Sequence record: PZ445554.1
Strand: one strand, 5' to 3'
Source: a phage
Length of the DNA: 64,000 nucleotides
The notes under the pieces were generated by a model, which was not told the DNA's origin, did not search any database, and worked only from the letters and a program-made list of their open reading frames with translations. A program made the translations under genes and the position numbers. How positions within the stretch are numbered: position 1 is the first letter of the stretch; the number at the start of each line of letters is the position of its first letter. Shown piece after piece: positions 8,514-53,548 of the stretch.

Positions 8514-9692
8514 TTAAAAGTATTTTTTAAAACTCATCATAACTTTATCATCAACATCATTATCAATCTGTGCAACAAGGTAAGATGACAGTTCTACTTC
8601 TTGTGGCGCGGATTGAACATTATCAGAATTAAGATATTCACGAATCCAAGGATATGGATGTTTAACCGGAGCATCGGTAATTGGGCATGGAAGACCACAC
8701 TGTTTCATACGAGATACAGTTAAGTAATCAATAAAGCTCCACATGCTATTTGTATTTAATCCAGGAACATCGCCATCTTTAAATAAATGAACTGCCCAAT
8801 CTTTTTCTTGGCGGTTAACTTCCATGAAAATATCAACTGCTTCTTGTTCACACTCTTGAGCAATTTTAACCCATTCATCACCATCAGTACCGGATTGAAG
8901 TTGACGAATAATATATTGAGTGCCTTTAAGGTGAAGCTGCTCATCGCGTGCAATGAACTTCATAATCTTGGCATTACCTTCCATGATTTCCATGTTTTTA
9001 TGGAAGTTAAAGGTACATGCGAAAGATACATAAAAACGAATAGCTTCCAATGCGTTGATTACATGCAAACAGAGGTAAAGAGATTTCATTAGCTCACGCT
9101 TCCAATATGTCTCATGCTCAATAGCATCTTCAATAACGTCTTCGTCTGCATTAATTTCTTTTTGGTATTCGATATCAGCTTTAGCGTTTTCCCAATAACG
9201 AGTTTTAATCAGAACATCATCATAATAGCGACCGATAGATTCAGCGCGTTTCATAATAGCTTCATCTAATACAATCTCATCAAACACCTTTGACGGATCA
9301 GTATAAAGATTTCGCATGATATGTGTATATGAACGACTGTGAATAGTTTCACTAAAAGTCCATGTAGCAACCCATGTATCAAGACTTGGGTCTGAAATTA
9401 ATGACATAAGTACAGCAGATGGCGCACGACCCTGAATGCTATCCAAAAGTGATTGATACTTCAGATTATTAGTAAAAATATTTTGCTGATACTGAGGAAG
9501 CTTATTAAACTGTGCAGCATCCATCATTAAGTTTACTTCTTCCGGGCGCCAGAAGAATGACAATTGCTTTTCGGTCAAATCTTCAAAAACTTTATGGCGT
9601 TGAATATCATAACGCGCAATACCAAGACCTGAACCAAAAAACATGGGTTCTTTTAAAACATCAACTGGATTTGTATTAAAAACTGTGCTCAT
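8514..9692 (-). CDS. nrdB: ribonucleotide reductase small subunit, class Ia
   Basis: 392 aa, ferritin-like di-iron protein, single uninterrupted ORF. Confidence 0.9.
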   Translation of the reverse strand: MSTVFNTNPVDVLKEPMFFGSGLGIARYDIQRHKVFEDLTEKQLSFFWRPEEVNLMMDAAQFNKLPQYQQNIFTNNLKYQSLLDSIQGRAPSAVLMSLISDPSLDTWVATWTFSETIHSRSYTHIMRNLYTDPSKVFDEIVLDEAIMKRAESIGRYYDDVLIKTRYWENAKADIEYQKEINADEDVIEDAIEHETYWKRELMKSLYLCLHVINALEAIRFYVSFACTFNFHKNMEIMEGNAKIMKFIARDEQLHLKGTQYIIRQLQSGTDGDEWVKIAQECEQEAVDIFMEVNRQEKDWAVHLFKDGDVPGLNTNSMWSFIDYLTVSRMKQCGLPCPITDAPVKHPYPWIREYLNSDNVQSAPQEVELSSYLVAQIDNDVDDKVMMSFKKYF

Positions 9693-9743
9693 AAATTTTC
9701 CGCTTAGTTAATAGATAGTGACTCGTCCGTGAGTCAAATTATA

Positions 9744-12008
9744 TCATAATTTACAGGATGAACAATCTTCAGCTTTTGGAGTTTCTATTTCATAATCATC
9801 AGTACCAGAACCATCACGGGTATTATGATAATAGAAATTTTTTCCGCCAAAATACCAAAAATACAAAAGGTCATCAATCATTATTGACATTGGAACCTTG
9901 CCTTTAGGGAAGATTTGGGGGTCATAATATGTATTTGCTGAAGCTGATTGACATACCCATTTCAACATAATAGCTACCTGTGTAAGATAAGGTTTATTAC
10001 CTTTCTTAGCTAATTTCCATGTATAATCATAGAGGTCTATGTTATGCTCAATATTGGGCACGACTTGATTAAAGGAGCCCTCTTTTGATTCTTTAACAGA
10101 GACTGGTCCACGTGGAGGCTCGATACCGTTTGTACTGTTAGAAACTTGGGAAGATGACTCACATGGCATAAGTGCTGATAATGTGCTATTACGGATGCCA
10201 AAGAGCTTAAGGTCTTCCCGCAGCGACGACCAGTCACAAACGTATTTTGGAGCTGCGATTTGGTCAATCTTTTTATTGTACCAGTCGATAGGTAATTCGC
10301 CTCGAGACCAACGAGTGTCTGAATAATATTCGCAAGGTCCTTTTTCTTTGGCGAGCTTAATGGATGCTTTAATGAGTCCATACTGTAATCTCTCAAATAG
10401 TTCATGTGTTAAATCGTTAGCATCTTCATAAGAAGCAAAGTTACTTGCCAGCCAAGCTGCATAGTTGGTAACACCTACACCGAGGTTACGACGCTTTTTG
10501 GCTTTTTCTGCTTCAGGAACCGGATATCCTTGGTAATCCAAAAGATTATCAAGAGCACGAACTTGGACTTCTGCCAATTCATTAATTTTATCTTGGTCTT
10601 GCCAATCAAAGTTATCCAGCACAAATGCTGATAACGTGCACAATCCAATTTCAGCATCAGGACTATTCACATCATTTGTTGGAATAGCAATTTCACAGCA
10701 CAAGTTACTCTGACGAATAGGTGCCTTTTCACGAATAAACGGAGTATAGTTATTCGTATTATCAATGAACTGTACATAAATCCTTGCTGTTCCTGAACGT
10801 TCAGTCATGAGCAATTCAAATAGTTCACGGGCTTTAATACGCTTTTTACGAATATTAGGGTCTTTTTCTGCTGCTTCGTACAATTCACGGAAACGGTCTT
10901 GGTCTTTAAAATAAGAATAATAAAGCTCGCCACCCATTTCATGCGGACTGAACAAAGTAATGTAATCGTTCTTTCCAAAACGTTCCATCATCAAATCATT
11001 CAGCTGAACACCATAATCCATATGACGAATGCGGTTTTCTTCTACACCTTTGTTATTTTTCAAAACAAGAAGATTTTCAACTTCCAAATGCCAAATAGGA
11101 TAATAAGCAGTAGCAGCGCCGCCACGAATTCCACCCTGTGAACATGATTTAACAGCAGTCTGAAAATGTTTCCAAAAAGGAATAACCCCAGTATGGCGTA
11201 CTTCACCCATGCCAATCTTAGAACCTTCGGCACGAATCATACCAACGTTAATACCAATTCCAGCACGTTTGGAGATATATTCAACAATTGAAGCGGAAGC
11301 CTTATTGATAGACTTTAGTGAATCACCTGCCTCAATAACAACGCATGAACTAAACTGCCGAGTTGGAGTACGGCAACCAGCCATAATAGGAGTTGGTAAT
11401 GAAATCTGTCGAGTAGATACTGCTTCATAAAAACGAATAACATGTTTTAATCTATCAACAGGTTCATCTTGATGCAATGCCATTCCAATAGTCATAAATG
11501 CAAACTGTGGAGTTTCATAAATTTGACCAGTGGTTTTATCTTTAACTAGATATTTTTCTTTTAATTGCATCGCCCCGGAATAAGTAAATTCCATATCCCG
11601 CTCGTGCTTAATTTTTGATTCTAAAAATGTAATTTCTTCTGCTGAATATTTTGACAATAATTCAGGGTCATATTTACCTTCATTTACACAGTAAGAAATA
11701 TGGTCAATAAATGAACGTGGTTCATATTGCCCGTAAACATGCTTACGAAGAGCAAACATTAAACAGCGTGCAGCTACGTATTGATAATCAGGCTCTTCAA
11801 CTGAAATAGAATTCGCAGCAGCCTTAATGACAATAGTCTGAATGTCATCAGTGGTCATTCCATCACGGAGATATGATTTAATATTTTCATATAATTCATA
11901 AGGATCTACAGATGTTCCTTCAGCTGCCCAAGATAAAACTTTAATAATTTTTTGTGGATCAAAGCTCTGAGAAACACCACTACTTTTGATAACATTAATT
12001 AATTGCAT
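9744..12008 (-). CDS. nrdA: ribonucleotide reductase large subunit, class Ia
   Basis: 754 aa; active-site region SNLCCEI; C-terminal redox cysteines. Confidence 0.95.
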   Translation of the reverse strand: MQLINVIKSSGVSQSFDPQKIIKVLSWAAEGTSVDPYELYENIKSYLRDGMTTDDIQTIVIKAAANSISVEEPDYQYVAARCLMFALRKHVYGQYEPRSFIDHISYCVNEGKYDPELLSKYSAEEITFLESKIKHERDMEFTYSGAMQLKEKYLVKDKTTGQIYETPQFAFMTIGMALHQDEPVDRLKHVIRFYEAVSTRQISLPTPIMAGCRTPTRQFSSCVVIEAGDSLKSINKASASIVEYISKRAGIGINVGMIRAEGSKIGMGEVRHTGVIPFWKHFQTAVKSCSQGGIRGGAATAYYPIWHLEVENLLVLKNNKGVEENRIRHMDYGVQLNDLMMERFGKNDYITLFSPHEMGGELYYSYFKDQDRFRELYEAAEKDPNIRKKRIKARELFELLMTERSGTARIYVQFIDNTNNYTPFIREKAPIRQSNLCCEIAIPTNDVNSPDAEIGLCTLSAFVLDNFDWQDQDKINELAEVQVRALDNLLDYQGYPVPEAEKAKKRRNLGVGVTNYAAWLASNFASYEDANDLTHELFERLQYGLIKASIKLAKEKGPCEYYSDTRWSRGELPIDWYNKKIDQIAAPKYVCDWSSLREDLKLFGIRNSTLSALMPCESSSQVSNSTNGIEPPRGPVSVKESKEGSFNQVVPNIEHNIDLYDYTWKLAKKGNKPYLTQVAIMLKWVCQSASANTYYDPQIFPKGKVPMSIMIDDLLYFWYFGGKNFYYHNTRDGSGTDDYEIETPKAEDCSSCKL

Positions 12009-12565: not shown

Positions 12566-13425
12566 TTATACCGCCATTTTTCCTTTCAAGACGCCGTGGG
12601 ACTGATAATCTTTGAGAACGAAATCTTTAGGCCTGAGTTTAAGAATGTATTCCAATTGTTCTTTAGTAGAAAGATAGCGGAATTTATAAGGCAATCCGCC
12701 TATTACCAGTTCACAAAGCTCTTTAGGTTCACGACGCAAAATTTCTTTACATTGTTCTACGTGATTCATATAGATATGAGTATTACCACCAGAAAATATC
12801 AAATCTCCCGGAATAAGATTACACATCTTAGCTACAATATGAACTAACGCAGCATATGATGCAATATTAAATGGAAGACCGAGGAAAACATCTACTGATC
12901 GTTGATACCACTGAAGGTCAAGGTATCCATTACGAACATTAAATTGATAGAACATATGACAAGGTGGTAATGCCATCTGCTTGAGTTCAGCTGGATTCCA
13001 TGCTGAAACAATTTGACGCCTATCATTTGGCAGTTTTTTAATACGATCAATAACTTCTATAATTTGGTCTACACCACCAAAATCACGCCACTGTTTTCCA
13101 TAAATTGGACCAAGTTCACCGCTATGGTATCCTAAATCTTTTGCTTGATTTTCGTAATTTTCATCCCAAACTGTTTTGCCTTGGATTAACGAATCATGTT
13201 GAATTAATCGCAAATCATTGACATTTGTGCTTCCCGATAAAAACCAAAGCAGCTCAGCAATGCAAGCTTTCCAGGCGAGCTTCTTAGTTGTTACTGCAGG
13301 AAAACCTTTAGTTAAATCCCAGCGTAATTTAGTACCGAACAAAGCAATTGTTCCTGTGCCTGTTCGGTCATCGGTTTCGTAGCCATTTTCCAGGATATCT
13401 TTAATTAAAAATTGGTATTGTTTCA

Positions 13426-13426
<1 letters not shown>
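12566..13426 (-). CDS. td: thymidylate synthase
   Basis: 286 aa from ATG at 13424-13426 (track start is TTG); active-site motif LPPCHMFYQF; no intron. Confidence 0.9.
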
Positions 13427-14455
<1,029 letters not shown>

Positions 14456-14466
14456 ATTGCCTCCTA

Positions 14467-14799
14467 TTAAAAAGGATCAGGAACATATCCGCTAGCTTTA
14501 ATCATTTTAATTAACGTTAACATTCCTTTGTTAACTGCTCGTGAGATTTCATCAAAAACTTCATCACTAAAAAGTTCTAACACGCCCTTCTGAACTTTTA
14601 ATTTACAGCCAACAATTTCGTCATCGCCTATAGTAAATTCGCTTCCGCCAATTCCGCCGAAAAACTTAATTACGCCAGTTAACTGTCTTCCACGAGAATA
14701 TGGGTCGTGTGATAAAGTAATATGAGTCACCCCAGGTACAGTTTTAAATTGGCAGCGGATGTTTACTTGAGCAATTCCAGTTACATGAATGTCAGACAT
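14467..14799 (-). CDS. hypothetical protein, 110 aa
   Basis: ORF track. Confidence 0.5.
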   Translation of the reverse strand: MSDIHVTGIAQVNIRCQFKTVPGVTHITLSHDPYSRGRQLTGVIKFFGGIGGSEFTIGDDEIVGCKLKVQKGVLELFSDEVFDEISRAVNKGMLTLIKMIKASGYVPDPF

Positions 14800-14809
14800 A
14801 TTATTTTCC

Positions 14810-15052
14810 TCAAACAGACTTTTTCACAATTTTCCAATCAGCTTTAAACTGCTCGACATCAGAATGGTAAATCCAGAATCCTGCGCTTTCTCCGTCTTCA
14901 TAAAGAGGACATCCATCACATTCATCTTCCCACCCCATATCGCGTAAAAGATGTTCAGCTTTTTCAACAAGCCCAGAATCTTTACCGATGATATTAAAAT
15001 ACCATTTACCTTTAACTTCTGAATCTTTGATGCTCTGGCGTTGTAATCTCAT
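14810..15052 (-). CDS. hypothetical protein, 80 aa
   Basis: ORF track. Confidence 0.45.
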   Translation of the reverse strand: MRLQRQSIKDSEVKGKWYFNIIGKDSGLVEKAEHLLRDMGWEDECDGCPLYEDGESAGFWIYHSDVEQFKADWKIVKKSV

Positions 15053-19267: not shown

Positions 19268-22200
19268 ATGGCCGAGATTAAAAGAAAGTTCAGAGCAGAA
19301 GATGGTCTGGACGCAGGTGGTGATAAAATAATCAACGTAGCTTTAGCTGATCGTACCGTAGGAACTGACGGTGTTAACGTTGATTACTTAATTCAAGAAA
19401 ACACAGTTCAGCAATATGATCCAACTCGTGGATATTTAAAAGATTTTGTAATCATTTATAATAATCGTTTTTGGGCAGCAACGGATAATATTCCAAAACC
19501 TGCTGGAAATTTTAATAGAATTCGTTGGAAAGCATTACGTACTGATGCCGTATATACAACCGTATCATCTGGACCATATCAATTAAAATCCGGAGAAGCA
19601 ATTTCAGTAGATACATCAGTTGGCAATGACATTGAGTTTACTTTACCACCTTCTCCGCTTGATGGAGAAACCGTAATAATTCAAGATATCGGTGGAAAAC
19701 CTGGCATAAATCAGGTTAAAATAAATTCTTCAAATCAGAGTATTGTCAATTTTAGAGGTGAACAGGTACGTTCAGTTTTAATGACTCATCCAAAGTCACA
19801 GATGGTATTCATTTTTAATAACCGTTTGTGGCAAATGTATATTGCTGATTATAGCAGAGAAGCTGCAATTGTTACTCCATCGACTGCATATCAAGCACAA
19901 TCTAATGATTTTATCGTACGTAGATTTACTTCTGCCGCACCGATTAATGTTAAACTTCCAAGATTTGCCAATCATGGAGATATCATTAATTTCGTTGATT
20001 TAGATAAATTAAATCCACTTTATCATACAATTGTTACGACATATGATGAAACGACGTCAGTGCAAGAAGTTGGAACTCATTCCATTGAAGGCCGTACATC
20101 GATTGACGGTTTCTTGATGTTTGACGATAATGAGAAATTGTGGAGATTGTTTGACGGGGATAGTAAAGCACGTTTACGCATTATAACAACTAATTCAAAT
20201 ATTCGTCCAAATGAAGAAGTCATGGTATTTGGTGCGAATAATGGAACAACCCAAACAATTGAACTTCAGCTTCCGACTGATATTTCTGTTGGTGATACTG
20301 TTAAAATTTCCATGAATTACATGAGAAAAGGACAAACAGTTAAAATCAAAGCTGCCGGTGAAGATAAAATTGCTTCTTCAGTTCAATTGCTGCAATTCCC
20401 AAAACGTTCAGAATATCCGCCTGAAGCTGAATGGGTAACAGTTCAAGAATTAGTTTTTAATGGTGAAACTAATTATGTACCAGTTTTGCAACTTGCTTAT
20501 ATAGAAGATTCTGATGGAAAATACTGGGTTGTACAGCAAAACGTTCCAACAGTTGAAAGAGTCGATTCTTTAAATAATTCTACTAGAGCAAGATTAGGCG
20601 TAATTGCTTTAGCTACACAAGCTCAAGCAAATGCTGATTTAGAAAATTCTCCGCAAAAAGAATTGGCAATTACTCCAGAAACGTTAGCTAATCGTACTGC
20701 TACTGAAACTCGCAGAGGTATTGCAAGAATAGCAACTACTGCTCAAGTAAATCAGAACACCACATTCTCTTTTGCAGATGACCTTATCATCACTCCTAAA
20801 AAGCTGAATGAAAGAACTGCTACAGAAACTCGTAGAGGTGTAGCTGAAATTGCTACGCAGCAGGAAACTAATACAGGTACTGATGATACTACAATCATCA
20901 CTCCTAAAAAGCTTCAAGCTCGTCAAGGTTCTGAATCATTATCTGGTATTGTAACTTTTGTATCTACCGCAGGAGCTACTCCAGCTTCTAGTCGTGAATT
21001 AAATGGTACGAATGTTTATAATAAAAACACTAATAATTTAGTTGTTTCACCTAAAGCTTTGGATCAGTATAAAGCTACTCCAACGCAACAAGGCGCAGTA
21101 ATTTTAGCAGTTGAAAGTGAAGTAATTGCTGGACAAAGCCAAGAAGGATGGGCAAATGCGGTTGTAACGCCAGAAACGTTACATAAAAAGACATCAACTG
21201 ATGCAAGAATTGGTTTAATTGAAATTGCTACACAAAGTGAAGTTAATACAGGAACTGATTATACTCGTGCAGTCACTCCTAAAACTTTAAATGACCGTAG
21301 AGCAACTGAAAGTTTAAGTGGTATAGCTGAAATTGCTACACAGGTTGAATTCGACGCAGGCGTCGACGATACTCGTATCTCTACACCATTAAAAATTAAA
21401 ACCAGATTTAATAGTACTGATCGTACTTCTGTTGTTGCTCTATCTGGATTAGTTGAATCAGGAACTCTCTGGGACCATTATACCCTTAATATTCTTGAAG
21501 CAAATGAGACACAGCGTGGTACACTTCGTGTAGCTACACAAGTTGAAGCTGCTGCAGGAACATTAGATAATGTTTTAATAACTCCTAAAAAGCTTTTAGG
21601 TACTAAATCTACTGAAGCACAGGAAGGTGTCATTAAAGTTGCAACTCAGTCTGAAACTGTGGCTGGAACGTCAGCAAATACTGCTGTATCTCCAAAAAAT
21701 TTAAAATGGATTGTGCAGAGTGAACCTACTTGGGCAGCTACTACTGCAATAAGAGGTTTTGTTAAAACTTCATCTGGTTCAATTACATTCGTTGGTAATG
21801 ATACGGTAGGTTCAACACAGCCATTAGAATCATATGAGAAAAATGGTTATGCAGTATCACCATATGAATTAAATCGCGTATTAGCAAATTATTTGCCATT
21901 AAAAGCAAAAGCTGTAGATAGTAATTTATTAGATGGTCTAGATTCGCTCCAGTTCATTCGTAGGGACATTGCACAAACAGTTAATGGTTCACTAACCTTA
22001 ACCCAACAAACGAATCTGAGTGCCCCTCTTGTATCATCTAGTACTGCTACATTCGGTGGATCAGTTTCAGCAAATAGTGTACTAACTATTTCTAATACTG
22101 GAACGGCAACTCGTCTGATTTTTGAGAAAGGACCTCAAACTGGAACAAACCCGGCTCAAACGATGACTGTCAGAGTGTGGGGAAATCAATTTAGTGGGGA

Positions 22201-23137
22201 ATCAGACACAACACGTTCTACCGTATTTGAAGTTAGTGATGAAACGTCTAGTCATTTTTATTCTCAGCGTAATAAAGCTGGAAATATAACATTTAATATT
22301 AACGGTACAGTAACACCGATAAATGTTAATGCTTCAGGAACATTGAATGCAAATGGTGTAGCAACATTTGGTAATTCAGTCACTGCAACTGGTGAAATTA
22401 TTTCTCGAAGCGCAAATGCTTTCCGTGCTATTAACGGAAATTATGGTTTCATTGTTCGCAATGATGGGTCAGTAACGAATTTTATGCTTACTGCATCGGG
22501 TGATCAAACTGGCGTATTTAATGGATTGCGTCCTTTAGCTATTAATAATGCATCTGGCCAAGTAACGATTGGTGAAAGCTTAATCATTGCAAAAGGTGCT
22601 ACTATAAGTTCGGGTGGTTTGACTGTTAACTCGAGAATTCGTTCTCAGGGTACTAAAACCTCTGATTTATATACCCGTGCGCCAACATCTGATACAGTAG
22701 GATTCTGGTCAATCGATATTAATGATTCAGCCACTTATAACCAGTTCCCGGGTTATTTTAAAATGGTTGAAAAAACTAATGAAGTGACTGGACTTCCATA
22801 CTTAGAACGTGGTGAAGAAGTTAAATCTCCTGGTACATTGACTCAGTTTGGTAACACACTTGATTCACTTTACCAAGATTGGATTACTTATCCAACGACC
22901 CCAGAAGCACGTACCACTCGCTGGACACGTACATGGCAGAAAACCAAAAACTCTTGGTCAAGTTTTGTTCAGGTATTTGACGGAGGTAACCCTCCTCAAC
23001 CTTCAGATATAGGAGCGATCCCATCTGATAATGGAATAATAGGTAATCTTACTATTCGCGATTTCTTGCGAATTGGTAATGTTCGCATTATTCCTGACCC
23101 AGTGAATAAAACTGTTAAATTTGAGTGGATTGAATAA
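19268..23137 (+). CDS. 34: long tail fibre proximal subunit gp34
   Basis: 1289 aa; internal repeated about 40-aa motif (ITPKKL...ATETRRG...EIATQ); late promoter TATAAATA 35 nt upstream. Confidence 0.9.
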   Translation: MAEIKRKFRAEDGLDAGGDKIINVALADRTVGTDGVNVDYLIQENTVQQYDPTRGYLKDFVIIYNNRFWAATDNIPKPAGNFNRIRWKALRTDAVYTTVSSGPYQLKSGEAISVDTSVGNDIEFTLPPSPLDGETVIIQDIGGKPGINQVKINSSNQSIVNFRGEQVRSVLMTHPKSQMVFIFNNRLWQMYIADYSREAAIVTPSTAYQAQSNDFIVRRFTSAAPINVKLPRFANHGDIINFVDLDKLNPLYHTIVTTYDETTSVQEVGTHSIEGRTSIDGFLMFDDNEKLWRLFDGDSKARLRIITTNSNIRPNEEVMVFGANNGTTQTIELQLPTDISVGDTVKISMNYMRKGQTVKIKAAGEDKIASSVQLLQFPKRSEYPPEAEWVTVQELVFNGETNYVPVLQLAYIEDSDGKYWVVQQNVPTVERVDSLNNSTRARLGVIALATQAQANADLENSPQKELAITPETLANRTATETRRGIARIATTAQVNQNTTFSFADDLIITPKKLNERTATETRRGVAEIATQQETNTGTDDTTIITPKKLQARQGSESLSGIVTFVSTAGATPASSRELNGTNVYNKNTNNLVVSPKALDQYKATPTQQGAVILAVESEVIAGQSQEGWANAVVTPETLHKKTSTDARIGLIEIATQSEVNTGTDYTRAVTPKTLNDRRATESLSGIAEIATQVEFDAGVDDTRISTPLKIKTRFNSTDRTSVVALSGLVESGTLWDHYTLNILEANETQRGTLRVATQVEAAAGTLDNVLITPKKLLGTKSTEAQEGVIKVATQSETVAGTSANTAVSPKNLKWIVQSEPTWAATTAIRGFVKTSSGSITFVGNDTVGSTQPLESYEKNGYAVSPYELNRVLANYLPLKAKAVDSNLLDGLDSLQFIRRDIAQTVNGSLTLTQQTNLSAPLVSSSTATFGGSVSANSVLTISNTGTATRLIFEKGPQTGTNPAQTMTVRVWGNQFSGESDTTRSTVFEVSDETSSHFYSQRNKAGNITFNINGTVTPINVNASGTLNANGVATFGNSVTATGEIISRSANAFRAINGNYGFIVRNDGSVTNFMLTASGDQTGVFNGLRPLAINNASGQVTIGESLIIAKGATISSGGLTVNSRIRSQGTKTSDLYTRAPTSDTVGFWSIDINDSATYNQFPGYFKMVEKTNEVTGLPYLERGEEVKSPGTLTQFGNTLDSLYQDWITYPTTPEARTTRWTRTWQKTKNSWSSFVQVFDGGNPPQPSDIGAIPSDNGIIGNLTIRDFLRIGNVRIIPDPVNKTVKFEWIE

Positions 23138-23145
23138 GAGGTATT

Positions 23146-24261
23146 ATGGAAAAATTTATGGCAGAGTTTGGACAAGGATATGTCCAAACGCCATTTTTAT
23201 CGGAAAGCAATTCAGTAAGATATAAAATAAGCATAGCGGGTTCTTGCCCGCTTTCTACTGCGGGGCCATATGTTAAATTTCAGGATAATCCCGTTGGAAA
23301 TCAAACATTTAGTGCAGGTCTTCATTTAAGAGTTTTTGACCCTTCTACGGGAGCATTAGTTGATAGCAAGTCATATGCTTTTTCTGCTTCAAACAATACA
23401 ACATCTGCCGCTTTTGTCAGTTTCATGAATTCTTTGTCAAACAATAGACTTGTTGCTATATTAACTAGCGGAAAGGTTAATTTTCCTCCTGAAGTGGTAT
23501 CTTGGTTAAGGGGAGCAGGAACTTCAGTTTTTCCATCAGATTCAGTATTGTCAAGATTTGACGTGTCATATGCTGCTTTTTATACTTCTTCTAAAAGAGC
23601 TATTGCATTAGAGCATGTTAAACTAAGTAATAGAAAAAGCACAGATGATTATCAAACTATTTTAGATGTTGTATTTGATAGTTTAGAAGACGTCGGAGCT
23701 ACAGGATTTCCTAAAAGAACATACGAAAGCGTTGAGCAATTTATGTCTGCGGTTGGAGGAACTAATAATGAAATTGCGCGATTGCCAACTTCAGCTGCTA
23801 TAAGTAAACTTTCTGACTACAATTTAATTCCTGGTGATGTTCTTTATCTTAAAGCACAACTATATGCTGATGCTGATTTACTTGATCTTGGAACTACAAA
23901 TATATCTATTCGTTTTTATGATGCATCAAATGGATATATTTCCTCGACCCAAGCTGAGTTTACTGGGCAAGCTGGGTCTTGGGAATTAAAAGAAGATTAT
24001 GTAGTTGTTCCTGAAAATGCAGTAGGATTTACGATATATGCACAAAGAACTGCCCAAGCAGGTCAAGGCGGCATGAGAAATTTAAGCTTTTCTGAAGTAT
24101 CAAGAAATGGCGGCATTTCAAAACCTGCTGAATTTGGCGTCAACGGTATTCGCGTTAATTATGTCTGCGAATCGGCTTCACCTCCAGATATAATGGTACT
24201 TCCTACACAAGCCTCTTCTAAAACTGGCAAAGTGTTTGGGCAAGAATTTAGAGAAGTTTAA
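23146..24261 (+). CDS. 35: long tail fibre hinge protein gp35
   Basis: 371 aa; follows gp34 with SD AAGAGG. Confidence 0.8.
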   Translation: MEKFMAEFGQGYVQTPFLSESNSVRYKISIAGSCPLSTAGPYVKFQDNPVGNQTFSAGLHLRVFDPSTGALVDSKSYAFSASNNTTSAAFVSFMNSLSNNRLVAILTSGKVNFPPEVVSWLRGAGTSVFPSDSVLSRFDVSYAAFYTSSKRAIALEHVKLSNRKSTDDYQTILDVVFDSLEDVGATGFPKRTYESVEQFMSAVGGTNNEIARLPTSAAISKLSDYNLIPGDVLYLKAQLYADADLLDLGTTNISIRFYDASNGYISSTQAEFTGQAGSWELKEDYVVVPENAVGFTIYAQRTAQAGQGGMRNLSFSEVSRNGGISKPAEFGVNGIRVNYVCESASPPDIMVLPTQASSKTGKVFGQEFREV

Positions 24262-24265
24262 ACTG

Positions 24266-24292
24266 AGGGAGCCTTCGGGTTCCCTTTTTCTT
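24266..24292 (+). terminator. rho-independent terminator after gp35
   Basis: Stem GGGAGCC, loop TTCG, stem GGTTCCC (one G-U pair), then TTTTTCTTT. Confidence 0.55.
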
Positions 24293-24300
24293 TATAAATA
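24293..24300 (+). promoter_or_regulatory. late promoter (TATAAATA) for gene 36
   Basis: Exact TATAAATA 23 nt upstream of the gene 36 ATG. Confidence 0.6.
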
Positions 24301-24323: not shown

Positions 24324-24974
24324 ATGGCTGATTTAAAAGTAGGTTCAACTGTAGGTGGATCTGTCATTTGGCATCAAGGAAATTTTCCATTGAATTCAGC
24401 CGGTGACGATGTACTCTACAAATCATTTAAAATATATTCAGAATATAATAAACCACAGGCAGCTGATAACGATTTCGTTTCTAAAGCTAATGGTGGTACT
24501 TACACCGGTCCAATTACTATTAATTACGGGGTAAATAGTTATCTTCAATTAAGTAATAATGAAACCCCCATTCGAATTCGTTCTGGTGGCGGTACCGGTA
24601 ATACTCTTGTAGTTGGCGGCTCTTCCGGCGGTATTAGTTTTAGACCTGCAGGTAGTGAAATCACTACTGGACAAATTACTATTACACCAGAAGGTTTGAC
24701 AACATTTACCAGGGCTGTAACGGCTCCATCGATAACTGTTACATCTACTCCTTCCGCAGCATCTGATGTTACTCGTAAAGATTATGTTGATGGAGCAATA
24801 AATACTGTTACAGCAAATGCAAACTCTAGGGTATTACGCTCTGGAGACACTATGACAGGAAATTTAACTGCGCCAAACCTTTTTTCACAGAATCCTGCAT
24901 CTCAACCTTCACACGTTCCACGATTTGACCAAATCGTAATTAAGGATTCTGTTCAAGATTTCGGCTATTATTAA
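24324..24974 (+). CDS. 36: long tail fibre distal connector gp36
   Basis: 216 aa; preceded by terminator hairpin and late promoter TATAAATA. Confidence 0.8.
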
Positions 24975-24982
24975 GAGGACTT

Positions 24983-27967
24983 ATGGCTACTTTAAAACAA
25001 ATACAATTTAAAAGAAGCAAAACTGCAGGTCAACTTCCTGCTGCTTCAGTATTAGCCGAAGGTGAATTGGCTATTAATTTAAAAGATAAAACAATTTTCA
25101 CAAAAGATGACTCAGGCAATGTTATAGAATTAGGTTTAAAATATGGAGGAACAATTGATGGTTCTTTAACTGTTAATGGAAATATAATTGGAAATTTAAC
25201 AGGTAACGCTGCAACTGCAACGAAATTAAAAACAGCACGAAAAATTAATGGTATATCCTTTGATGGGTCAAAAGATATCACGCTAACTCCATCTGACATA
25301 AATGTCAATAGCACAACGTTTATAAAAAATAATGGCGAATTACCTGTTGATGCTAATTTAGATACGTATGGGCCTGTTGAAGAATATCTTGGAGTTTGGT
25401 CGAAAGCAACTTCAACCAACGCTCAACCAGCAAATAAATTTCCAGAAGAAAATGCTGTAGGTGTGCTAGAAGTATTTGTGGCCGGTCAATTTGCTGGTAC
25501 TCAGAGATATACAACTAGATACGGAAATGTTTATATTCGTTCCTTGACTGCTACATGGAACGGAGTAAATGGTCCGTGGAGTGTGTGGCGAAATATTCAA
25601 TCCGGTACTCGTCCACTGTCAACAACAATTGATCTTAATGATCTAGGAGGCGCTGAACACTTTGGTTTGTGGCGAAATAGTTCAAATTCCATTGCTACCT
25701 TTGACAGAAATTTCCCAGAAGAGGGGTCGTCAGCTCAAGGTCTTTTGGAAGTATATGAAGGTGGAAACTATTCTCGTACACAAAGATATACAACCAGATT
25801 TGGTGTTGTATATACTCGTTGTCTTGCTGCCGCATGGGATGCTTCCGCGCCTAAATGGGGACCGTGGCAACAAGTCGGTAATGTCACACCAGCGACTTTC
25901 TATGACGGAGATCTGAATGATTTTAAAACCCCTGGGTTATATAATATTTTAGGCACTGATGCCGTTATTAACTGTCCTACAGGTGAAGGTTTGCCGACTG
26001 TTATTGTTGGTTTGCTGGAAGTTAAACAACGTGCTTCTGGCGGTGCTATTTTCCAAAAATTTACTACTGCCGGAACGGGTGCAACTACTCGCGATCGTAT
26101 TTTTGAGCGTGCATATACTGGTGGTGTGTGGGGTGCATGGAACGAAGTATATACATCTTACTCTCTGCCAATTACTTTAGGTATGGGTGGTATTAAAACT
26201 CAATTAGCGGAGCTAGATTGGCAAACATTTGATTTTGTTCCTGGTAGTATGTTTAGCGTTCCTTTGAACAAAATAAAGAACATGCCAGCTAATATGAATT
26301 GGGGCACGATTGACGGAAACTTAATTATGTTTTCTGTTGGTCCTAGCGAGCACACCAGCACAGGACGTACTGTTCAGGTTTGGCGTGGTACTGTATCCCA
26401 GACAAACTACCGTTATTTTGTCGTTCGTGTGTTCGGTAATTCTGGAAATAGAACTTGTACAGTTCGCCGTGTTGTTCTTGAAGATGGTCGCCACACATGG
26501 ACAGCTCAACAAGATTTTAATGGTGCTGTTAACTTCGGTGCTCCTACCAATTTTAACTCTACTGTTAACCTTAATAACACTACCACATTTAAAACAGAAG
26601 TTAAATTTCGCTCATTGAATGCATTCCGTATGTATGGCGGAAAATTTGGTACATTTTTACGTAATGATGGAGAGAGTCTTTATATTCTTTCCACCGACGA
26701 AGATGATCAAGATGGAAACTTTAATACAAATAGACCTTTCCGTTATGAATTAAGAACTGGTGATGTTACTTTGGGTGGTGCTAGTGGTGCTAACGTTTTA
26801 AAATTAAAACGTGATTCTCTCACCGCATTTTTTGGCGGTGATATTAACATTAAAGGCACGATGACTTTTGACGCCGGACGTTTAGGATCACGAGATTATT
26901 TTAAATTTAACCATTGGGGTGATAGTAATAATGCGCGTGATAACATTATTCAGTTAGAAGACAGCAAAGGCGCTCATTTTTCCACTGAACGTACTTTAGC
27001 GACTGGTGCAATTAAGACTAAATTTTTTGGTGAAATTGAATCCGATGGTAAATTGGTTATTAAACGTCCGGGTGATTCTATTGTATTATCAACAACTGCT
27101 AGTAATTCTTTGCATATTCGTGGTGACATAGACGGGACTGGTAACTGGTATATTGGTAAGGGTGGTGCTGATAATGGATTAGCGTTATATAGTTATGCTA
27201 CTAATGCTGGTGTATACATTACAAACGCAGGAGATATCACGCTAAGTCCAAAAGGCGTCGAAATGGCCCATGTCAATAACGTTCGATTATATGTTCATGG
27301 TGAACGTTGGACTGCTAGTCAACCAGGTGATTGGGGTAGTCAGTGGCAAGTGGAAGCGCCAATATTCGTCGATCATGGTTATGTTTCACAGGATTGTTAT
27401 TATCCAATTATTAAAGGAAGAAGTGTAATCACCAATCAAGGGTTTGTAACTGCCGTCGATCTTGGTATTCGTCGTGTCAATAACAATTGGGGACAAGCAA
27501 TTATTCGTGTTGGATCTGCGGAGGCATCGCCAGCGGCTGGACACCCTAACGCGGTATTTGAATTTCATTACGACGGTACTTTCTATTCTCCTGGTAATGG
27601 TAACTTTAGCGATGTGTATATTCGTTCCGATGGTCGTCTTAAGATTAATAAAAAAGAGCTAGAAAACGGAGCACTTGAAAAAGTATGCCGACTGAAAGTT
27701 TATACATACGATAAGGTTAAGTCTATTAAAGATCGTAGTGTTATTAAACGTGAAGTTGGTATTATTGCTCAGGATCTTGAAAAAGAATTACCGGAAGCTG
27801 TGTCTAAAGTTGAAGTTGATGGATCTGATGTTCTGACAATTTCTAACTCCGCTGTGAATGCTCTTTTAATTAAGGCTATCCAAGAAATGAGCGAAGAAAT
27901 TAAAGAATTAAAAACGCCTTTCTTCACTAAAATTGCTCGCAAAATTAGTAAATATTTTAAATTCTAA
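24983..27967 (+). CDS. 37: long tail fibre distal subunit gp37
   Basis: 994 aa; three tandem repeated modules; C-terminal intramolecular-chaperone-like domain. Confidence 0.85.
27604..27964 (+). other. C-terminal intramolecular chaperone / self-cleaving domain of gp37 (peptidase S74-like)
   Basis: Motif ...[18 protein letters not shown]...[12 protein letters not shown]... resembles auto-processing chaperone domains of tail fibres and endosialidases. Confidence 0.5.
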
Positions 27968-28001
27968 CAACAAGGGGCAACGCCCCCTTTGGAGATAAAT
28001 T

Positions 28002-28802
28002 ATGGCAGTAGTTGGTGTTCCTGGTTGGATTGGTAGTTCATCCGTAAATGAAACAGGACAACGATGGATGAGTCAAGCGGCTGGTCAATTAAGATTGGGT
28101 GTTCCTTGCTGGATGAGTCAATTTGCAGGTCGCTCACGAGAAATTATTCATACACTTGGAGCAGACCATAACTTCAATGGTCAATGGTTCCGAGATAGAT
28201 GTTTTGAGGCCGGTAGTGCACCTATAGTGTTTAATATTACAGGTGATTTAGTATCATATTCTAAAGATGTTCCTTTATTCTTCATGTACGGGGATACGCC
28301 TAATGAATATGTTGTTCTTAATATTCATGGTGGTGTTCATATGTGGGGTCGTGGTGGTAATGGTGGATACACTCACTCGGGAGGCGACGGTAACGGTACA
28401 CAAGGCGGTCATGTTATTCAAAATGATATCGGTGGACGGCTTCGTATTTGGAACTACGGTGTTATAGCTGCTGGCGGTGGCGGCGGTGGTGGTATTGCAT
28501 ATCGTCCACACTCAGGGGCAAAATGGCAAGATATCGGTGGCGGTGGTGGTCGACCTTTCGGTGGCGCTGGCGGTGGCGGTTATTCCGGTGGTGCTGCTTC
28601 GTATGAAGGTCCGGGTGGTGGTTATGACTATGGTAACGCACACTCCGGCGCTGGTGGTAATGCTGGTGCTGCTGGTCAGAATGCATGGTCTGACGGCGGT
28701 AAAGTTCTTAAAGTTGGTGTTGGTGGTGCGTCTGGTCATGCAGTGTTTGGATCTTCTCCAACTTGGGGTGTTGTTGGAACAATTTACGGACCAAGAGTAT
28801 AA
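28002..28802 (+). CDS. 38: receptor-recognising tail fibre tip adhesin gp38 (T2-type, glycine-rich motifs)
   Basis: 266 aa with poly-Gly motifs (GGGGGGG) separated by variable segments; directly follows gp37. Confidence 0.75.
28380..28700 (+). repeat. glycine-codon repeats (GGT/GGC runs) encoding the gp38 glycine-rich motifs
   Basis: Low-complexity G-rich coding DNA; it produces spurious alternative-frame ORFs in the track. Confidence 0.7.
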
Positions 28803-28832
28803 TGTGAATAAATACCCTTAAAAGGAGGGTCT

Positions 28833-29489
28833 ATGGCAGCACCTAGAATATCATTTTCGCCCTCTGATATTCTATTTGGTGTTCTAGATCGCTTGTTCAA
28901 AGATAATGCTACCGGGAAAGTTCTTGCTTCCCGGGTAGCTGTCGTAATTCTTTTGTTTATAATGGCGATTGTATGGTATAGGGGAGATAGTTTCTTTGAG
29001 TACTATAAGCAATCAAAGTATGAAACATACAGTGAAATTATTGAAAAGGAAAGAAATGCACGCTTTGAATCTGTCGCCCTGGAACAACTCCAGATAGTTC
29101 ATATATCATCTGAGGCAGACTTTAGTGCGGTGTATTCTTTCCGCCCTAAAAACTTAAACTATTTTGTTGATATTATAGCATATGAAGGAAGATTACCTTC
29201 AACAATAACTGAAAAATCACTTGGAGGATATCCTGTTGATAAAACTATGGATGAATATACAGTTCATTTAAATGGACGTCATTATTATTCCAACTCAAAA
29301 TTTGCTTTTTTACCAACTAAAAAGCCTACTCCCGAAATAAACTACATGTACAGTTGTCCATATTTTAATTTGGATAATATCTATGCTGGAACGATAACCA
29401 TGTACTGGTATAGAAATGATCATATAAGTAATGACCGCCTTGAATCAATATGTGCTCAGGCGGCCAGAATATTAGGAAGGGCTAAATAA
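28833..29489 (+). CDS. t: holin T
   Basis: 218 aa, single N-terminal TM helix and large periplasmic domain; sequence recognised as T4 holin. Confidence 0.9.
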   Translation: MAAPRISFSPSDILFGVLDRLFKDNATGKVLASRVAVVILLFIMAIVWYRGDSFFEYYKQSKYETYSEIIEKERNARFESVALEQLQIVHISSEADFSAVYSFRPKNLNYFVDIIAYEGRLPSTITEKSLGGYPVDKTMDEYTVHLNGRHYYSNSKFAFLPTKKPTPEINYMYSCPYFNLDNIYAGTITMYWYRNDHISNDRLESICAQAARILGRAK

Positions 29490-30784: not shown

Positions 30785-31251
30785 TAGTAAAGGTCCTCGG
30801 AGTAAAGTTCTTTTTCACTACCACCACGTTCAATACGCACTTGTCCAGCGTAAGTTGCAATAATCATTGCTTCTTCACGTGTCCAGTAATTGCTATACTG
30901 GTCAATAAATCCTTGGTCTTCACCACAAACATGGTCTGATACAAGTTTATCACTTACCTGGTCAAGAACTTCAGCCATATCTTTAGAATAATGACGAGCA
31001 CCAGGAATAACCAGAGTCCCACCATCTTTTAACTTAAAGCGGTTGGCTGCACACACAATTCGACGTTGATATTTTTCATTATTGTTCCAATGAGCTACTT
31101 GCCAACAGATTTCAGGAACCTCTTCTAAAACATCCTCTTCCGTATATTCGGTGTAGTCGCCATAGGCCTGTAATTTAGCTGCTAGACTTTCTGGAGTTTC
31201 ACGTAATAAAGCCAGGTCTAATAATTCAAGACGCTCTTTGAAGGTTTTCAT
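30784..31251 (-). CDS. hypothetical protein, 155 aa
   Basis: ORF track, ATG start. Confidence 0.5.
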
Positions 31252-31403
31252 TTGGTTTCCTCAACACTTTTAATTTTTATAGCTTGTTTAGAACTTTCAA
31301 AGCATTGACAATATACTCTTACCGCATCAAACTGGTTGGCCGCTTTAAGATGGACTACACCTTCGCCGTTATAAAATTCTACAACAATTTTAAATGTTTT
31401 CAT
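31248..31403 (-). CDS. small ORF, about 51 aa (absent from track)
   Basis: ATGA overlaps at both ends with neighbouring genes. Confidence 0.3.
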
Positions 31404-42743: not shown

Positions 42744-42748
42744 AATTT

Positions 42749-43120
42749 TCACTTAAATTTAATGGCTTGAAGAAGACTAATAATTCTCAAGCGACTTCCT
42801 TCATCTTTAACTGTAAAAGAAAGAGGGTCACCAGATTTCATAGTGATAGTGCATTCAAAAGCAAAACCTTCGGGAACTTCTTCGAAGAAGTCAAATTCTT
42901 CATCATAAATTAGAACATTACTCTGAAAACTGTGAAGAATTTTTCCGTCATTTCCAGATGCTGTACTAATCATTGTAACATTATTACCTTTCATATCTTC
43001 AACGATAAATTCGCTTGTAGATATTACAGCATTAATAGAACCATTCCTATAAATAGCAGAAAATAGATATTTCTTTTCTTCACCTTCGCGAATGCGATAT
43101 TTCTTACCGATTTTAAACAT
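42749..43120 (-). CDS. hypothetical protein, 123 aa
   Basis: ORF track. Confidence 0.5.
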   Translation of the reverse strand: MFKIGKKYRIREGEEKKYLFSAIYRNGSINAVISTSEFIVEDMKGNNVTMISTASGNDGKILHSFQSNVLIYDEEFDFFEEVPEGFAFECTITMKSGDPLSFTVKDEGSRLRIISLLQAIKFK

Positions 43121-44669: not shown

Positions 44670-45173
44670 CTAGCTTACACGAACATTAATCACTGCGCTA
44701 CGAGGAACTACAGAGTATTCTCCAGCATGAACTACGTTCAGAAGTTCAACGCCATCTTCAATCCACTGGTCAGTTACCCAACCACCGACCGGATTCGCGA
44801 ATGGACGACGAATGTAAACCGCCTTACACAACAAATCAGTCGGGTCTTCAATTTTTTCAACTGGTGCCACATACATAGAAACTAAATCCATATCAATATG
44901 GAATTTTTCCTGTTCTTCTTTTTCAATTTCTGTCAATAGACTAAAATCTTTTTCATAAATAATAAGCGATGACACCATTCCATAATAGTTTCTAATTTCA
45001 ATATACATCATGCCGATAAGAATTCCGCTATTAACACTAATAACAATAAAAGGATATCCGCCAGTTAAAGCAAGAAGTTCACAAAACTTATTATGAGCTG
45101 TATTAGACAGTACCGGAAAATTCTTAATTTCATCAAATTTTTTCAATTGATAAACAGCATTATTTTTAATCAT
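44670..45173 (-). CDS. hypothetical protein, 167 aa; paralogue of the preceding ORF
   Basis: C-terminal motif TDQWIEDGVELLN; N-terminal part unrelated and hydrophobic. Confidence 0.5.
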   Translation of the reverse strand: MIKNNAVYQLKKFDEIKNFPVLSNTAHNKFCELLALTGGYPFIVISVNSGILIGMMYIEIRNYYGMVSSLIIYEKDFSLLTEIEKEEQEKFHIDMDLVSMYVAPVEKIEDPTDLLCKAVYIRRPFANPVGGWVTDQWIEDGVELLNVVHAGEYSVVPRSAVINVRVS

Positions 45174-53098: not shown

Positions 53099-53335
53099 TT
53101 AACCACCTATTTCTGTTGGCGTAAACATTGCAGCATTCTTAGTTTTCCAGTCAGCTGCATCAGAAACTACAGTAGAATATGCCGCCTTTTCAGAAGGAAA
53201 GGTCTGATAATGAGAATCTGCAATACGATGCTCGTTAGAATAGATTTCAAACGGAACAGAAACTTCCATACCTTTAACTTCTTTGCCTTCACCCGCTGGA
53301 TGAGTAAAGGTCTTGATGTTAACGAAACCACCCAT
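53099..53335 (-). CDS. soc: small outer capsid protein Soc
   Basis: 78 aa; motifs VNIKTF and YQTFPSEKAAYSTV as recalled for T4 Soc; late promoter TATAAATA upstream, terminator downstream. Confidence 0.8.
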   Translation of the reverse strand: MGGFVNIKTFTHPAGEGKEVKGMEVSVPFEIYSNEHRIADSHYQTFPSEKAAYSTVVSDAADWKTKNAAMFTPTEIGG

Positions 53336-53366
53336 AATAAACTCCTTTATTGTTTAATTACAGGTG

Positions 53367-53374
53367 TATTTATA
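53367..53374 (-). promoter_or_regulatory. late promoter (TATAAATA) for soc
   Basis: Exact TATAAATA 32 nt upstream of the soc ATG. Confidence 0.55.
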
Positions 53375-53548
53375 TCAGTCTTCAATGAAAACTTGTGCCA
53401 GGAATTCGTGTTCATCTTGAATTTGTTTATATAAAGCCATTACAGCATTTATATTAGAGCTATCTACTTTAAGTTGATAAGCATACCACTCGTGTAAATT
53501 AATTAAAGCTTTTTGACGTCTAATAAATTCTTCTTTGGATATTTTCAT
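53369..53548 (-). CDS. small ORF, about 59 aa (absent from track)
   Basis: ATGA overlap with upstream ORF. Confidence 0.25.

Follow-up and report, generated by a model that had tools for sequence, protein, structure and literature searches.

Genes 37 and 38 of a T2/T6-type Tequatrovirus probably encode the receptor-recognition module of coliphage Ox2

Genes 37 and 38 in the phage record PZ445554.1, of which we analysed a window of 64 kb (64,000 nucleotides), very probably constitute the module by which a T2/T6-type Tequatrovirus recognises its receptor, and in the comparable sequence this module is that of coliphage Ox2, with predicted S74-type processing of the distal fibre subunit gp37, docking of the adhesin gp38 and binding to OmpA. 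We document its gene structure, domain membership, dyad conservation, predicted folds, near-identity to Ox2 and segment-wise modularity. The module is already known and has been studied since the 1980s, and we found no new biology in it. Publications from 1986 to 1991 described the adhesin of Ox2, its build of glycine-rich and hypervariable parts and the processing of gp37, the work on the Ox2 record X05675.1 reportedly coming from the Henning laboratory (1987–1991); tip-adhesin structures followed in 2018 and 2026, and the position of gp38 at the fibre tip of T2-type virions is likewise published. The follow-up work suggested in a preliminary description of this DNA has largely appeared in print between 1986 and 2026. 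What the annotation of this genome gains is a probable cleavage site, R881^S882, the boundaries of the adhesin loops and a probable receptor, OmpA.

Results

The program-made list of open reading frames places gene 37 at 24983-27967 (+ strand, 994 aa) and gene 38 at 28002-28802 (+ strand, 266 aa plus stop), exactly where the preliminary description had put them. Gene 37, encoding the precursor of the distal long-tail-fibre subunit, matches phrog_1699 ('long tail fiber protein distal subunit') over its full length with E 3.7e-224; gene 38, encoding the monomeric tail-fibre tip adhesin, the Ox2 receptor-recognising protein, is assigned by its matches to Pfam, the PDB and X05675.1. Gene order at the locus is the canonical g34-g35-g36-g37-g38-t, with intergenic spacers of 34 nt (g37/g38) and 30 nt (g38/t). 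Gene 38 lies directly 3' of the chaperone-encoding end of gene 37, and the holin gene t (28833..29489, + strand; Pfam Phage_holin_T, E 4e-117), next downstream, bounds the module. Short ORFs on both strands within gene 38 (28267-28821) were dismissed as a by-product of its stop-poor, GGN-rich sequence; they lack independent support and lie wholly inside a strongly supported gene.

An exact match to the T4-type late promoter consensus, TATAAATA, is found 24 nt 5' of gene 36 (24293..24300, + strand), directly preceded by a terminator-like hairpin at 24265-24286, and is where the late transcript of g36-g37-g38 likely begins. Since the motif count across the whole window shows no excess over chance, this assignment is one by position; a second copy is located at 19226, upstream of gene 34. 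A sigma-70 promoter scan returned fewer sites than expected by chance (12 versus 18.5) and was left unused, and when the window as a whole was scanned for tRNAs and Rfam families, no RNA element could be assigned to the gp37/gp38 module.

Compared with the Ox2 entry X05675.1 (GenBank, 1987), which spans the 3' end of gene 37, gene 38 and gene t in the same order and with the same spacers, positions 27212-28950 of the window are identical at 1737 of 1739 nt; over this length, the module is essentially the Ox2 sequence itself and not merely 'Ox2-type'. At the protein level, the C-terminal 251 residues of gp37 are identical to those of Ox2, as are 265 of the 266 residues of gp38. One of the two nucleotide differences, at 28523 (A here, G in X05675.1), is synonymous (K174), whereas the other, at 28578 (G here, C in X05675.1), replaces Arg193 by Gly193 and is the sole protein change. 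Residue 193 is the first of the third hypervariable segment (HVS3); apart from it, all four segments are identical to those of Ox2. Gly is the majority state at this position among close relatives (9/12, with Arg in 2/12), which suggests that G193 is the ordinary form, whereas R193 reflects either a less common natural variant or a mistake in the 1987 entry. Residue 174, within HVS2, is Lys here and Asn in most close relatives, and it is also the position at which gp38 differs from that of the nearest complete genome, ph0021. Neither the exact gp37 nor the exact gp38 sequence was found in a collection of 15 billion proteins.

Within the gp37 shaft, residues 522-587 (26546..26743, + strand) form a Gp34_trimer-like domain shared with the C-terminus of gp34 (Pfam PF21446, E 2.7e-12), and the T4 gp34 structures 5nxf, 4uxe and 9x3r align to residues 440-630 with E values of about 1e-10; for the repeat region at residues 101-420, no solved structure matched at E ≤ 1. 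The extreme C-terminus of the subunit is occupied by a 113-residue intramolecular chaperone of the Peptidase_S74 type (aa 882-994; 27626..27964, + strand), as indicated by Pfam (PF13884, matched over aa 882-940 with E 1e-11 and 45.4 bits, the cutoff being 22), by the predicted model and by a profile search that matched S16 gp37 (6f45_A, E 1.2e-16). The chaperone segment originally delimited at about 27604-27964 corresponds to residues 875-994 and starts 7 residues upstream of the cleavage site that we predict; the protein string quoted for it is present, with YIRSDGRLK at residues 879-887 (nt 27617-27643). In the AlphaFold2 model of the monomeric C-terminus, the overall pLDDT is 74 and that of the core 81-90, with the residues before the cleavage site poorly predicted. 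With strands between residues 67 and 113 of the modelled segment and a helix from 115 to 151, the model shows, as the preliminary description had anticipated, the chaperone fold, which consists of beta-hairpins and a long C-terminal coiled-coil helix; its 12 best Foldseek matches in the PDB are all chaperone or ICA domains (7dc3, 3gud, 3gw6, 4uw8), led by 7dc3 (E 2e-5, TM 0.58-0.64).

The Ser-Lys dyad, which had been left to be located, maps to S882 and K887, five residues apart. Ser882 (27626..27628, + strand) is the predicted nucleophile and the first residue past the scissile bond, and Lys887 (27641..27643, + strand), at i+5, the predicted general base. In 45 gp37 homologues, Lys887 is invariant down to about 31% identity, and Ser882 and Asp883 are at least 90% conserved. 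Ser882 aligns with the Ser of S16 SSDRRIK, with the first residue of 3gud, whose chain starts at SDERHK, and with the position of S587A in MyRF 7dc3; Lys887 aligns with the Lys of S16, GA-1 and MyRF. MyRF S587/K592 correspond to the catalytic dyad of endoNF, S911/K916, and in this chemistry the cut falls N-terminal to Ser (PMC8326128). S16 gp37 cleaves itself at DLNVS^SDRRIKK, freeing 113 residues, and the string DVYIR^SDGRLKI of fPS phage gp37 has been aligned to this site (PMC7917993). The gp37 studied here contains an identical string, and by analogy with S16 we predict a cut at DVYIR881^S882DGRLK that would likewise free 113 residues. The preceding DVYIR (aa 877-881; 27611..27625, + strand), by its identity with the fPS phage string, is the predicted C-terminal strand of mature gp37 and surface for gp38 docking. 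For T2 and T6 gp37, C-terminal cleavage and subsequent capping by gp38 have been reported (PMC3157838).

The domain and motif scores of gp37 and gp38 are far beyond chance. For gp38 they comprise Pfam GP38 (PF05268, E 1.7e-67, 227.9 bits) and Gp38_N (PF21721, E 3.2e-19, 69.1 bits), each with a cutoff of 25, phrog_2056 (E 1.9e-109) and the PDB sequences 9v85 (E 1.8e-65) and 6f45_D (E 5.2e-43). Its alignment with gp38 of T2 (E 2e-41) and T6 (E 6e-95) bears out the earlier assignment to the T2 type and not the T4 type. The AlphaFold2 model (pLDDT 87) superposes on 9v85_C (TM 0.88) and 6f45_D (TM 0.81), with no other PDB fold at E < 1 in Foldseek, and predicts the three-domain fold of a helical attachment domain, a beta-helix and a polyglycine-II sandwich. 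The attachment domain (aa 1-46; 28002..28139, + strand as all gp38 features below; Gp38_N at aa 1-42) is of the T6 subtype and contains Trp9, Trp22 and Trp37, each aligned with one of the three Trp in gp38 of S16; Trp9 is invariant and Trp22 at least 90% conserved in 45 gp38 sequences, and Trp37 is invariant in a 12-sequence alignment. Such Trp residues act as prongs that enter pockets of gp37 (PMC6851490). The conserved beta-helix (aa 47-115; 28140..28346) is 90-94% identical to those of T6, M1, MX01, FL08 and AV119, and its strands are modelled with pLDDT > 90.

Past the beta-helix, the Gly content rises from 12% (aa 1-115) to 36% (aa 116-266), with Gly runs at residues 158-164, 179-183, 190-193 and 205-207. 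The conserved poly-glycine motifs between variable segments that had been read from the sequence reappear in the entropy profile of 45 homologues, in which Gly motifs at low entropy (0.34-0.68 bits in the three main ones, rising to about 1.1 in two shorter ones) alternate with segments at 1.6-2.6 bits. The first motif, GRM1 (GRGGNGG, aa 116-122; 28347..28367), has a mean entropy of 0.38 bits, with G116, R117, G118, G119 and G121 invariant, and is followed by HVS1 (aa 123-134; 28368..28403) at 1.68 bits, 17% identical to T6 and 83% to FL08 and AV119. GRM2, a run of seven Gly (aa 158-164; 28473..28493; 0.34 bits), precedes HVS2 (aa 165-178; 28494..28535), the segment of highest entropy (2.60 bits; identity 14% to T6, 79-86% to FL08/AV119). 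GRM3 (aa 179-192; 28536..28577; 0.68 bits), with G182, G183, P185, G187 and G190 invariant, leads into HVS3 (aa 193-215; 28578..28646), which was delimited by entropy and segment identity and includes a short GGG motif at 205-207. GRM5 (aa 216-226; 28647..28679), with G216, G218, G219, G222 and G225 at least 90% conserved, is followed by HVS4 (aa 227-240; 28680..28721; 2.35 bits; identity 14% to T6, 93% to FL08/AV119), and the protein ends in a conserved motif (aa 241-266; 28722..28799) with G242, G245, A247, V248, P253, W255, G259, I261, Y262 and G263.

In sum over these segments, identity is 14-17% to T6, which binds Tsx, and 79-93% to the OmpA binders FL08 and AV119. Because of this pattern, the receptor is almost certainly E. 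coli OmpA, and the view that the variable segments are the likely determinants of specificity gains in weight. Ox2 binds the extracellular loops of OmpA, FL08 and AV119 are OmpA-dependent, and the R165-A170 stretch of FL08 reportedly contacts OmpA loops (PMC12032242); HVS2 contains the equivalent stretch, R168-x-H-S-G-A. Full infectivity of Ox2 reportedly depends on more than one component of the host (PMC3157838), so OmpA alone as its receptor may be an oversimplification.

Discussion

Considering that the gene occupies the same position as in T4, and that many records label its homologues 'distal long tail fiber assembly catalyst' (e.g. T6, wV7, ASO78A), one can ask whether gp38 is an assembly chaperone of the T4 type, missing from the virion, with the gp37 tip itself binding the receptor. 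We regard the chance of this as close to nil. The preliminary description had set gp38 apart from the 183-aa T4 chaperone, and the two proteins indeed show no similarity in BLASTP (E = 3.6) and have no Pfam family in common, T4 gp38 giving no GP38 match in a scan that covered T4 and T2 proteins. Moreover, the present gp37 carries the S74 chaperone instead of the T4 Collar and needle-tip domains, and gp38, 61% identical to the PP01 receptor-binding domain, superposes as a model on the tip adhesins of both PP01 and S16. Database entries that give homologous gp38 genes labels such as 'assembly catalyst' or 'peptidase' are wrong on this point.

With gp38 taken as a tip adhesin, it is highly improbable that the S74-like domain of gp37 has degenerated into a non-cleaving remnant kept on the mature fibre, since a chaperone left in place would bar gp38 from docking. 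Such a remnant would fit the only moderately confident monomer model and the extra basic and aromatic tail of about 13 residues (aa 982-994) that extends past the end of T2 gp37; however, Ser882, Asp883 and Lys887 show just the conservation seen in family members with proven self-cleavage, the site string is the one aligned with the mapped S16 site (PMC7917993), and the protein is 92% identical to gp37 of T6, for which, as for T2, cleavage is reported (PMC3157838). It is also distinctly unlikely that the module is as described but differs from classical Ox2 in receptor specificity, using for example OmpC or LPS as well by way of G193 or K174. These residues open HVS3 and lie within HVS2, respectively, and according to PMC12892980, which cites Drexler 1989 and 1991, single substitutions in Ox2 gp38 reportedly alter receptor specificity; yet most close relatives have Gly at position 193, and the four segments are otherwise those of Ox2. 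That Gly193 and Lys174 might give a receptor range unlike that of classical Ox2, with more or less use of OmpC or LPS, is a very slim prospect; if true, it would provide a natural counterpart of the laboratory host-range mutants of Ox2.

For the Ox2 module, we envisage the following course of events, which nothing in our data contradicts and in which the actual cleavage, docking and OmpA binding are taken over from published homologues. Late transcription of genes 36-37-38 probably starts from the TATAAATA promoter (24293), and gp37 would be produced as a precursor of 994 residues, the last 113 of which, as an S74-type intramolecular chaperone, would trimerise and drive folding of the trimeric fibre upstream. 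Once the fibre has folded, the Ser882/Lys887 dyad would cut the Arg881/Ser882 bond, and departure of the chaperone would expose a flat trimeric gp37 tip ending in ...DVYIR. A single gp38 monomer could then use the helical domain at its N-terminus to dock on this tip, with Trp9, Trp22 and Trp37 entering three symmetry-related gp37 pockets. In the C-terminal half of gp38, the Gly-rich motifs would pack as a polyglycine-II sandwich that displays the hypervariable loops (aa 123-134, 165-178, 193-215 and 227-240) distally, and since these loops would bind the surface loops of OmpA, they would also set the host range. Presence at the virion tip together with recognition of an outer-membrane receptor is known for gp38 of Ox2, T2, T6 and S16 (PMC3157838, PMC12032242, PMC6851490), and from the identity of 265/266 residues with Ox2 gp38 we infer both for the present protein. 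In host-range engineering, this well-characterised module can serve as a scaffold.

Beyond Ox2, the known systems resemble the module to different degrees. T6 (MH550421.1) has a gp37 of the same length, 92% identical over 994 residues without gaps, with a DVYIRSD.RLK site and a chaperone with C-terminal tail as here; its gp38 is 100% identical in the attachment domain and 91% in the beta-helix, but just 14-17% in HVS1-4, which fits the different receptors, Tsx for T6 and OmpA for Ox2. In their Pfam domains, gp37 and gp38 of T2 agree with the proteins encoded in the window. The gp38 of the S16 gp37(3)-gp38 tip complex (6F45) can be aligned from end to end (E 5e-43, 41% identity, TM 0.81), and the fragment freed from S16 gp37 equals, with 113 residues, the size predicted here. 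S16 differs in its receptor, Salmonella OmpC, in its HVSs, in the residue preceding the scissile bond (Ser in S16, Arg here) and in the gp37 shaft upstream of the tip, which is unrelated in sequence. The receptor-binding domain of PP01 gp38 (9V85) is the best solved-structure match (61% identity, TM 0.88, aa 38-266), but PP01 has unlike HVS sequences and binds OmpC of E. coli O157 (PMC12892980). T4 shares the gene positions, the gp34-36 partners, the N-terminus of gp37 and the Gp34_trimer-like domain; its gp38, however, is the unrelated chaperone, and its gp37, with a Collar domain, fibre repeats and a receptor-binding needle tip, is devoid of an S74 domain. The chaperone domains of endoNF (3GW6), GA-1 gp12 (3GUD), T5 pb1 (4UW8) and MyRF (ICA, 7DC3) share the predicted fold of the gp37 C-terminus, the SDxRxK motif with Ser and Lys at i and i+5, and the C-terminal location in a trimeric fibre, at only 8-21% sequence identity. 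In gp37, this domain is joined to a T-even distal fibre, where by analogy its removal would create the docking site for a separate adhesin.

Gene order and transcription of the module

The canonical T-even order is kept: genes 34 (19268-23137), 35 (23146-24261) and 36 (24324-24974), assigned from this order and from Pfam/PHROG matches, are followed on the plus strand by gene 37 (24983-27967; 994 residues; ORF call, PHROG 1699, Pfam) and gene 38 (28002-28802; 266 residues; ORF call, Pfam GP38/Gp38_N), with holin t (28833-29489) directly after. The positions that a preliminary description, made from the sequence alone, had given for the genes of the distal long-tail-fibre subunit gp37 and the tip adhesin gp38 proved exact. 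A terminator-like hairpin (24265-24286) precedes the T4 late-promoter consensus TATAAATA at 24293, 24 nt 5' of gene 36; a second copy lies upstream of gene 34, at 19226, the whole-window count of the motif being not above chance. Since the spacers between genes 36 and 37 and between genes 37 and 38 measure 8 and 34 nt, the three genes are, by position, likely to share a single late transcript. The latter spacer (27968-28001) contains a 5-bp G+C hairpin (GGGGC-AAC-GCCCC) followed by CTTT, immediately 5' of the gene 38 ribosome-binding site GGAG; it was not called by the terminator scan, and could affect RNA stability or act as a weak attenuator. G+C in the gene 38 region is 0.44-0.48 compared to about 0.35, with a strong positive GC skew, because residues 116-266 of gp38 are glycine-rich. 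Five ORFs of 66-114 residues that overlap gene 38 in other frames or on the opposite strand (28267-28821, both strands) are most likely artefacts of stop-poor, GGN-rich sequence.

gp37 and its C-terminal chaperone domain

The whole length of gp37 is covered by PHROG 1699 ('long tail fiber protein distal subunit'; E 3.7e-224), and Pfam places a Gp34_trimer-like domain at residues 522-587. Residues 134-205 (nt 25382-25597) and 225-298 (nt 25655-25876) form tandem domains, each of about 75-95 residues, that are clearly related: they share the pattern ...GxLEV...TQRYTTRxGxVYxRxL...W...W and align with a score of 159 (z = 24), the mean for shuffled sequence being 27.6. A third copy, around residues 341-395, is much weaker (z about 2). 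This repeat region matches PHROG 4618, 'tail collar fiber protein', and a sequence search for a solved structure of it found none.

A chaperone or S74 peptidase domain had been suspected at the gp37 C-terminus, with a Ser-Lys dyad to be looked for, and both were borne out. Pfam Peptidase_S74 ('chaperone of endosialidase') covers residues 882-940 (E 1e-11; 45.4 bits, cutoff 22). When an AlphaFold2 model of residues 841-994 (pLDDT 81-90 across the chaperone core) was compared with the PDB by Foldseek, the best 12 matches, among them MyRF (7dc3; E 2e-5, TM 0.58-0.64), GA-1 (3gud), endoNF (3gw6) and T5 pb1 (4uw8), were all intramolecular chaperone or ICA domains, every match ranked after them having E > 1. 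The string quoted in the preliminary description is indeed there, with YIRSDGRLK as residues 879-887. Across 45 homologues, with identity down to about 31%, Lys887 does not vary, while Ser882 and Asp883 each stay the same in at least 90%. The profile of these homologues matches S16 gp37 (6f45_A, E 1.2e-16), and profile alignment puts S882-D-G-R-L-K887 on S16 SSDRRIK, S882-K887 on SDERHK, the first residues of the released GA-1 chaperone, and S882 on the S587A-mutated site of MyRF. MyRF S587/K592 correspond to endoNF S911/K916, a dyad indispensable for autocleavage, which occurs immediately N-terminal to the Ser (PMC8326128). The S16 cleavage site, S^SDRRIKK, from which 113 residues are released, has been aligned to DVYIR^SDGRLKI (PMC7917993), identical to the string found here. 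Based on the conserved dyad residues, these alignments and the identical site string, we predict that the chain is cut between Arg881 and Ser882 (nt 27625/27626), which would yield a mature gp37 of 881 residues and a released chaperone of 113 residues (nt 27626-27964). The last 13 or so residues of this Ox2/T6-type domain (982-994, nt 27926-27964) make up a basic, aromatic tail; it is kept in T6 gp37 with one substitution, but T2 gp37 stops short of it, at ...KELESKLM.

Architecture of the gp38 adhesin

Pfam GP38 (E 1.7e-67) and Gp38_N (E 3.2e-19) together span the whole of gp38, whose glycine content is 36% in residues 116-266 compared to 12% in residues 1-115, with runs at 158-164, 179-183, 190-193 and 205-207. 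As had been proposed, poly-glycine motifs alternate with variable segments. Column entropy over 45 homologues, from which boundaries were taken approximately, delimits Gly-rich motifs at residues 116-122, 158-164, 179-192, 205-207 and 216-226 (three main motifs 0.34-0.68 bits, two shorter ones about 1.1 bits) and hypervariable segments HVS1-4 at 123-134, 165-178, 193-215 and 227-240 (1.6-2.6 bits), with a conserved C-terminal motif after the last; five motifs and four segments constitute the published gp38 architecture (PMC3157838). In a PDB sequence search, gp38 matched the receptor-binding domain of PP01 gp38 (9v85, E 1.8e-65) and S16 gp38 (6f45_D, E 5.2e-43). Aligned to the latter, Trp9, Trp22 and Trp37 fall on its three Trp residues that plug into gp37. 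The AlphaFold2 model (pLDDT 87) superposes on 9v85_C (TM 0.88, 61% identity) and 6f45_D (TM 0.81); beyond these, the Foldseek PDB search gave no other fold with E < 1.

Relationship to Ox2 and receptor specificity

In a tblastn search of a phage collection, gp38 matched X05675.1, 'Bacteriophage Ox2 gene 38 for receptor-recognizing protein and flanking regions', with 99.6% identity. Base by base, 27212-28950 differs from this 1739-nt record at two positions: 28523 (A here, G in Ox2; synonymous) and 28578 (G here, C in Ox2; Gly193 vs Arg193 in gp38); the last 251 gp37 residues are identical. Among close relatives, residue 193 is Gly in 9 of 12 and Arg in 2. Over the module, the closest complete genomes (ph0021, PsgM02F and DalCa) show about 97% identity, K174N being the sole difference in gp38 of ph0021. 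The exact gp37 and gp38 sequences are absent from a 15-billion-protein collection, but each has neighbours only a very few residues away; gp38 with at least 95% identity occurs in 36 phage records, and this adhesin type is therefore common. One carrier of the same Ox2-type module is OR584013.1, a Tequatrovirus deposited as 'Pseudomonas phage PsgM02F' (97.0% over the module, 99.3% over the gp38 region), whose recorded host, Pseudomonas coronafaciens pv. garcae, is odd for an OmpA-type E. coli adhesin.

gp37 and T6 gp37 align over 994 residues without gaps, at 92% identity. For gp38, identity to T6 is 100% in the attachment domain, 91% in the beta-helix and 14-17% in HVS1-4, compared to 50-57%, 91-93% and 79-93% for the OmpA binders FL08 and AV119. 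Because of these segment-wise identities, gp38 reads as a T6-type attachment domain joined to an Ox2/FL08-type specificity domain, in line with the earlier suggestion that the variable segments determine specificity. The T6-type gp37 tip and attachment domain fit the published 'lock-and-key' pairing of gp37 tips with gp38 N-terminal subtypes (PMC3157838). Ox2 binds OmpA surface loops, while T6 binds Tsx (PMC12032242). HVS2 contains R168-P-H-S-G-A, equivalent to FL08 R165-V-H-S-G-A, which is predicted to touch OmpA loops (PMC12032242). Gly193/Arg193 or Lys174/Asn174 are unlikely to alter receptor range; full Ox2 infectivity may require a second host component besides OmpA (PMC3157838).

Comparison with the closest complete genome

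For the window as a whole we used Escherichia phage ph0021. It has two genes that are absent here (at 9700-9747 and around 54270, respectively): one with an HNH domain, lying between nrdA and nrdB (11118-11849), and one for a homing endonuclease, lying between genes 56 and 61 (25900-26550). Conversely, about 2 kb (12878-14912) is without counterpart in ph0021, whose td gene looks truncated; ORFs in or near it (12566-13438, 13629-14210, 14467-14799) occupy the position of td and frd in T4. Smaller unmatched patches lie at 31212-31390, 42748-43117, 44863-45154 and 53215-53542. Scans of the whole window returned neither tRNA genes nor any Rfam family at threshold, group I introns included. Nothing interrupts the reading frame of the candidate td ORF (12566-13438) or that of the candidate nrdB ORF (8514-9692).

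Discussion

In the mechanism suggested by homologues, the C-terminal chaperone would trimerise and fold the gp37 fibre, Ser882/Lys887 would then cut before Ser882, and the chaperone would depart. A single gp38 monomer would dock through its three Trp residues, its polyglycine-II sandwich presumably displaying the hypervariable loops to OmpA. All elements of the preliminary interpretation are supported. Of the two outcomes that it named as refuting it, alignment of gp38 with the T4-type chaperone and a gp37 C-terminus lacking the chaperone fold, neither was seen. The module is already known, and the checks proposed with that interpretation have been published for Ox2 gp38 itself and close relatives.

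In many database records T2-type gp38 is labelled 'distal long tail fiber assembly catalyst', which is what gp38 does in T4, or 'tail protein and peptidase'; both labels are misannotations that have propagated. A reading of gp38 as the 183-residue T4-type chaperone was rejected, since T4 gp38 shows no similarity to it (E 3.6) and no GP38 domain in a Pfam scan. T4 gp37 likewise has Collar and fibre-repeat domains without S74, whereas gp37 here carries S74. The T2-type assignment held: T2 gp37 and gp38 show exactly the same domain pattern, T2 gp38 aligns with E 2e-41, and the T2 gp37 C-terminus is 45% identical, VYIRSDIRLK included.
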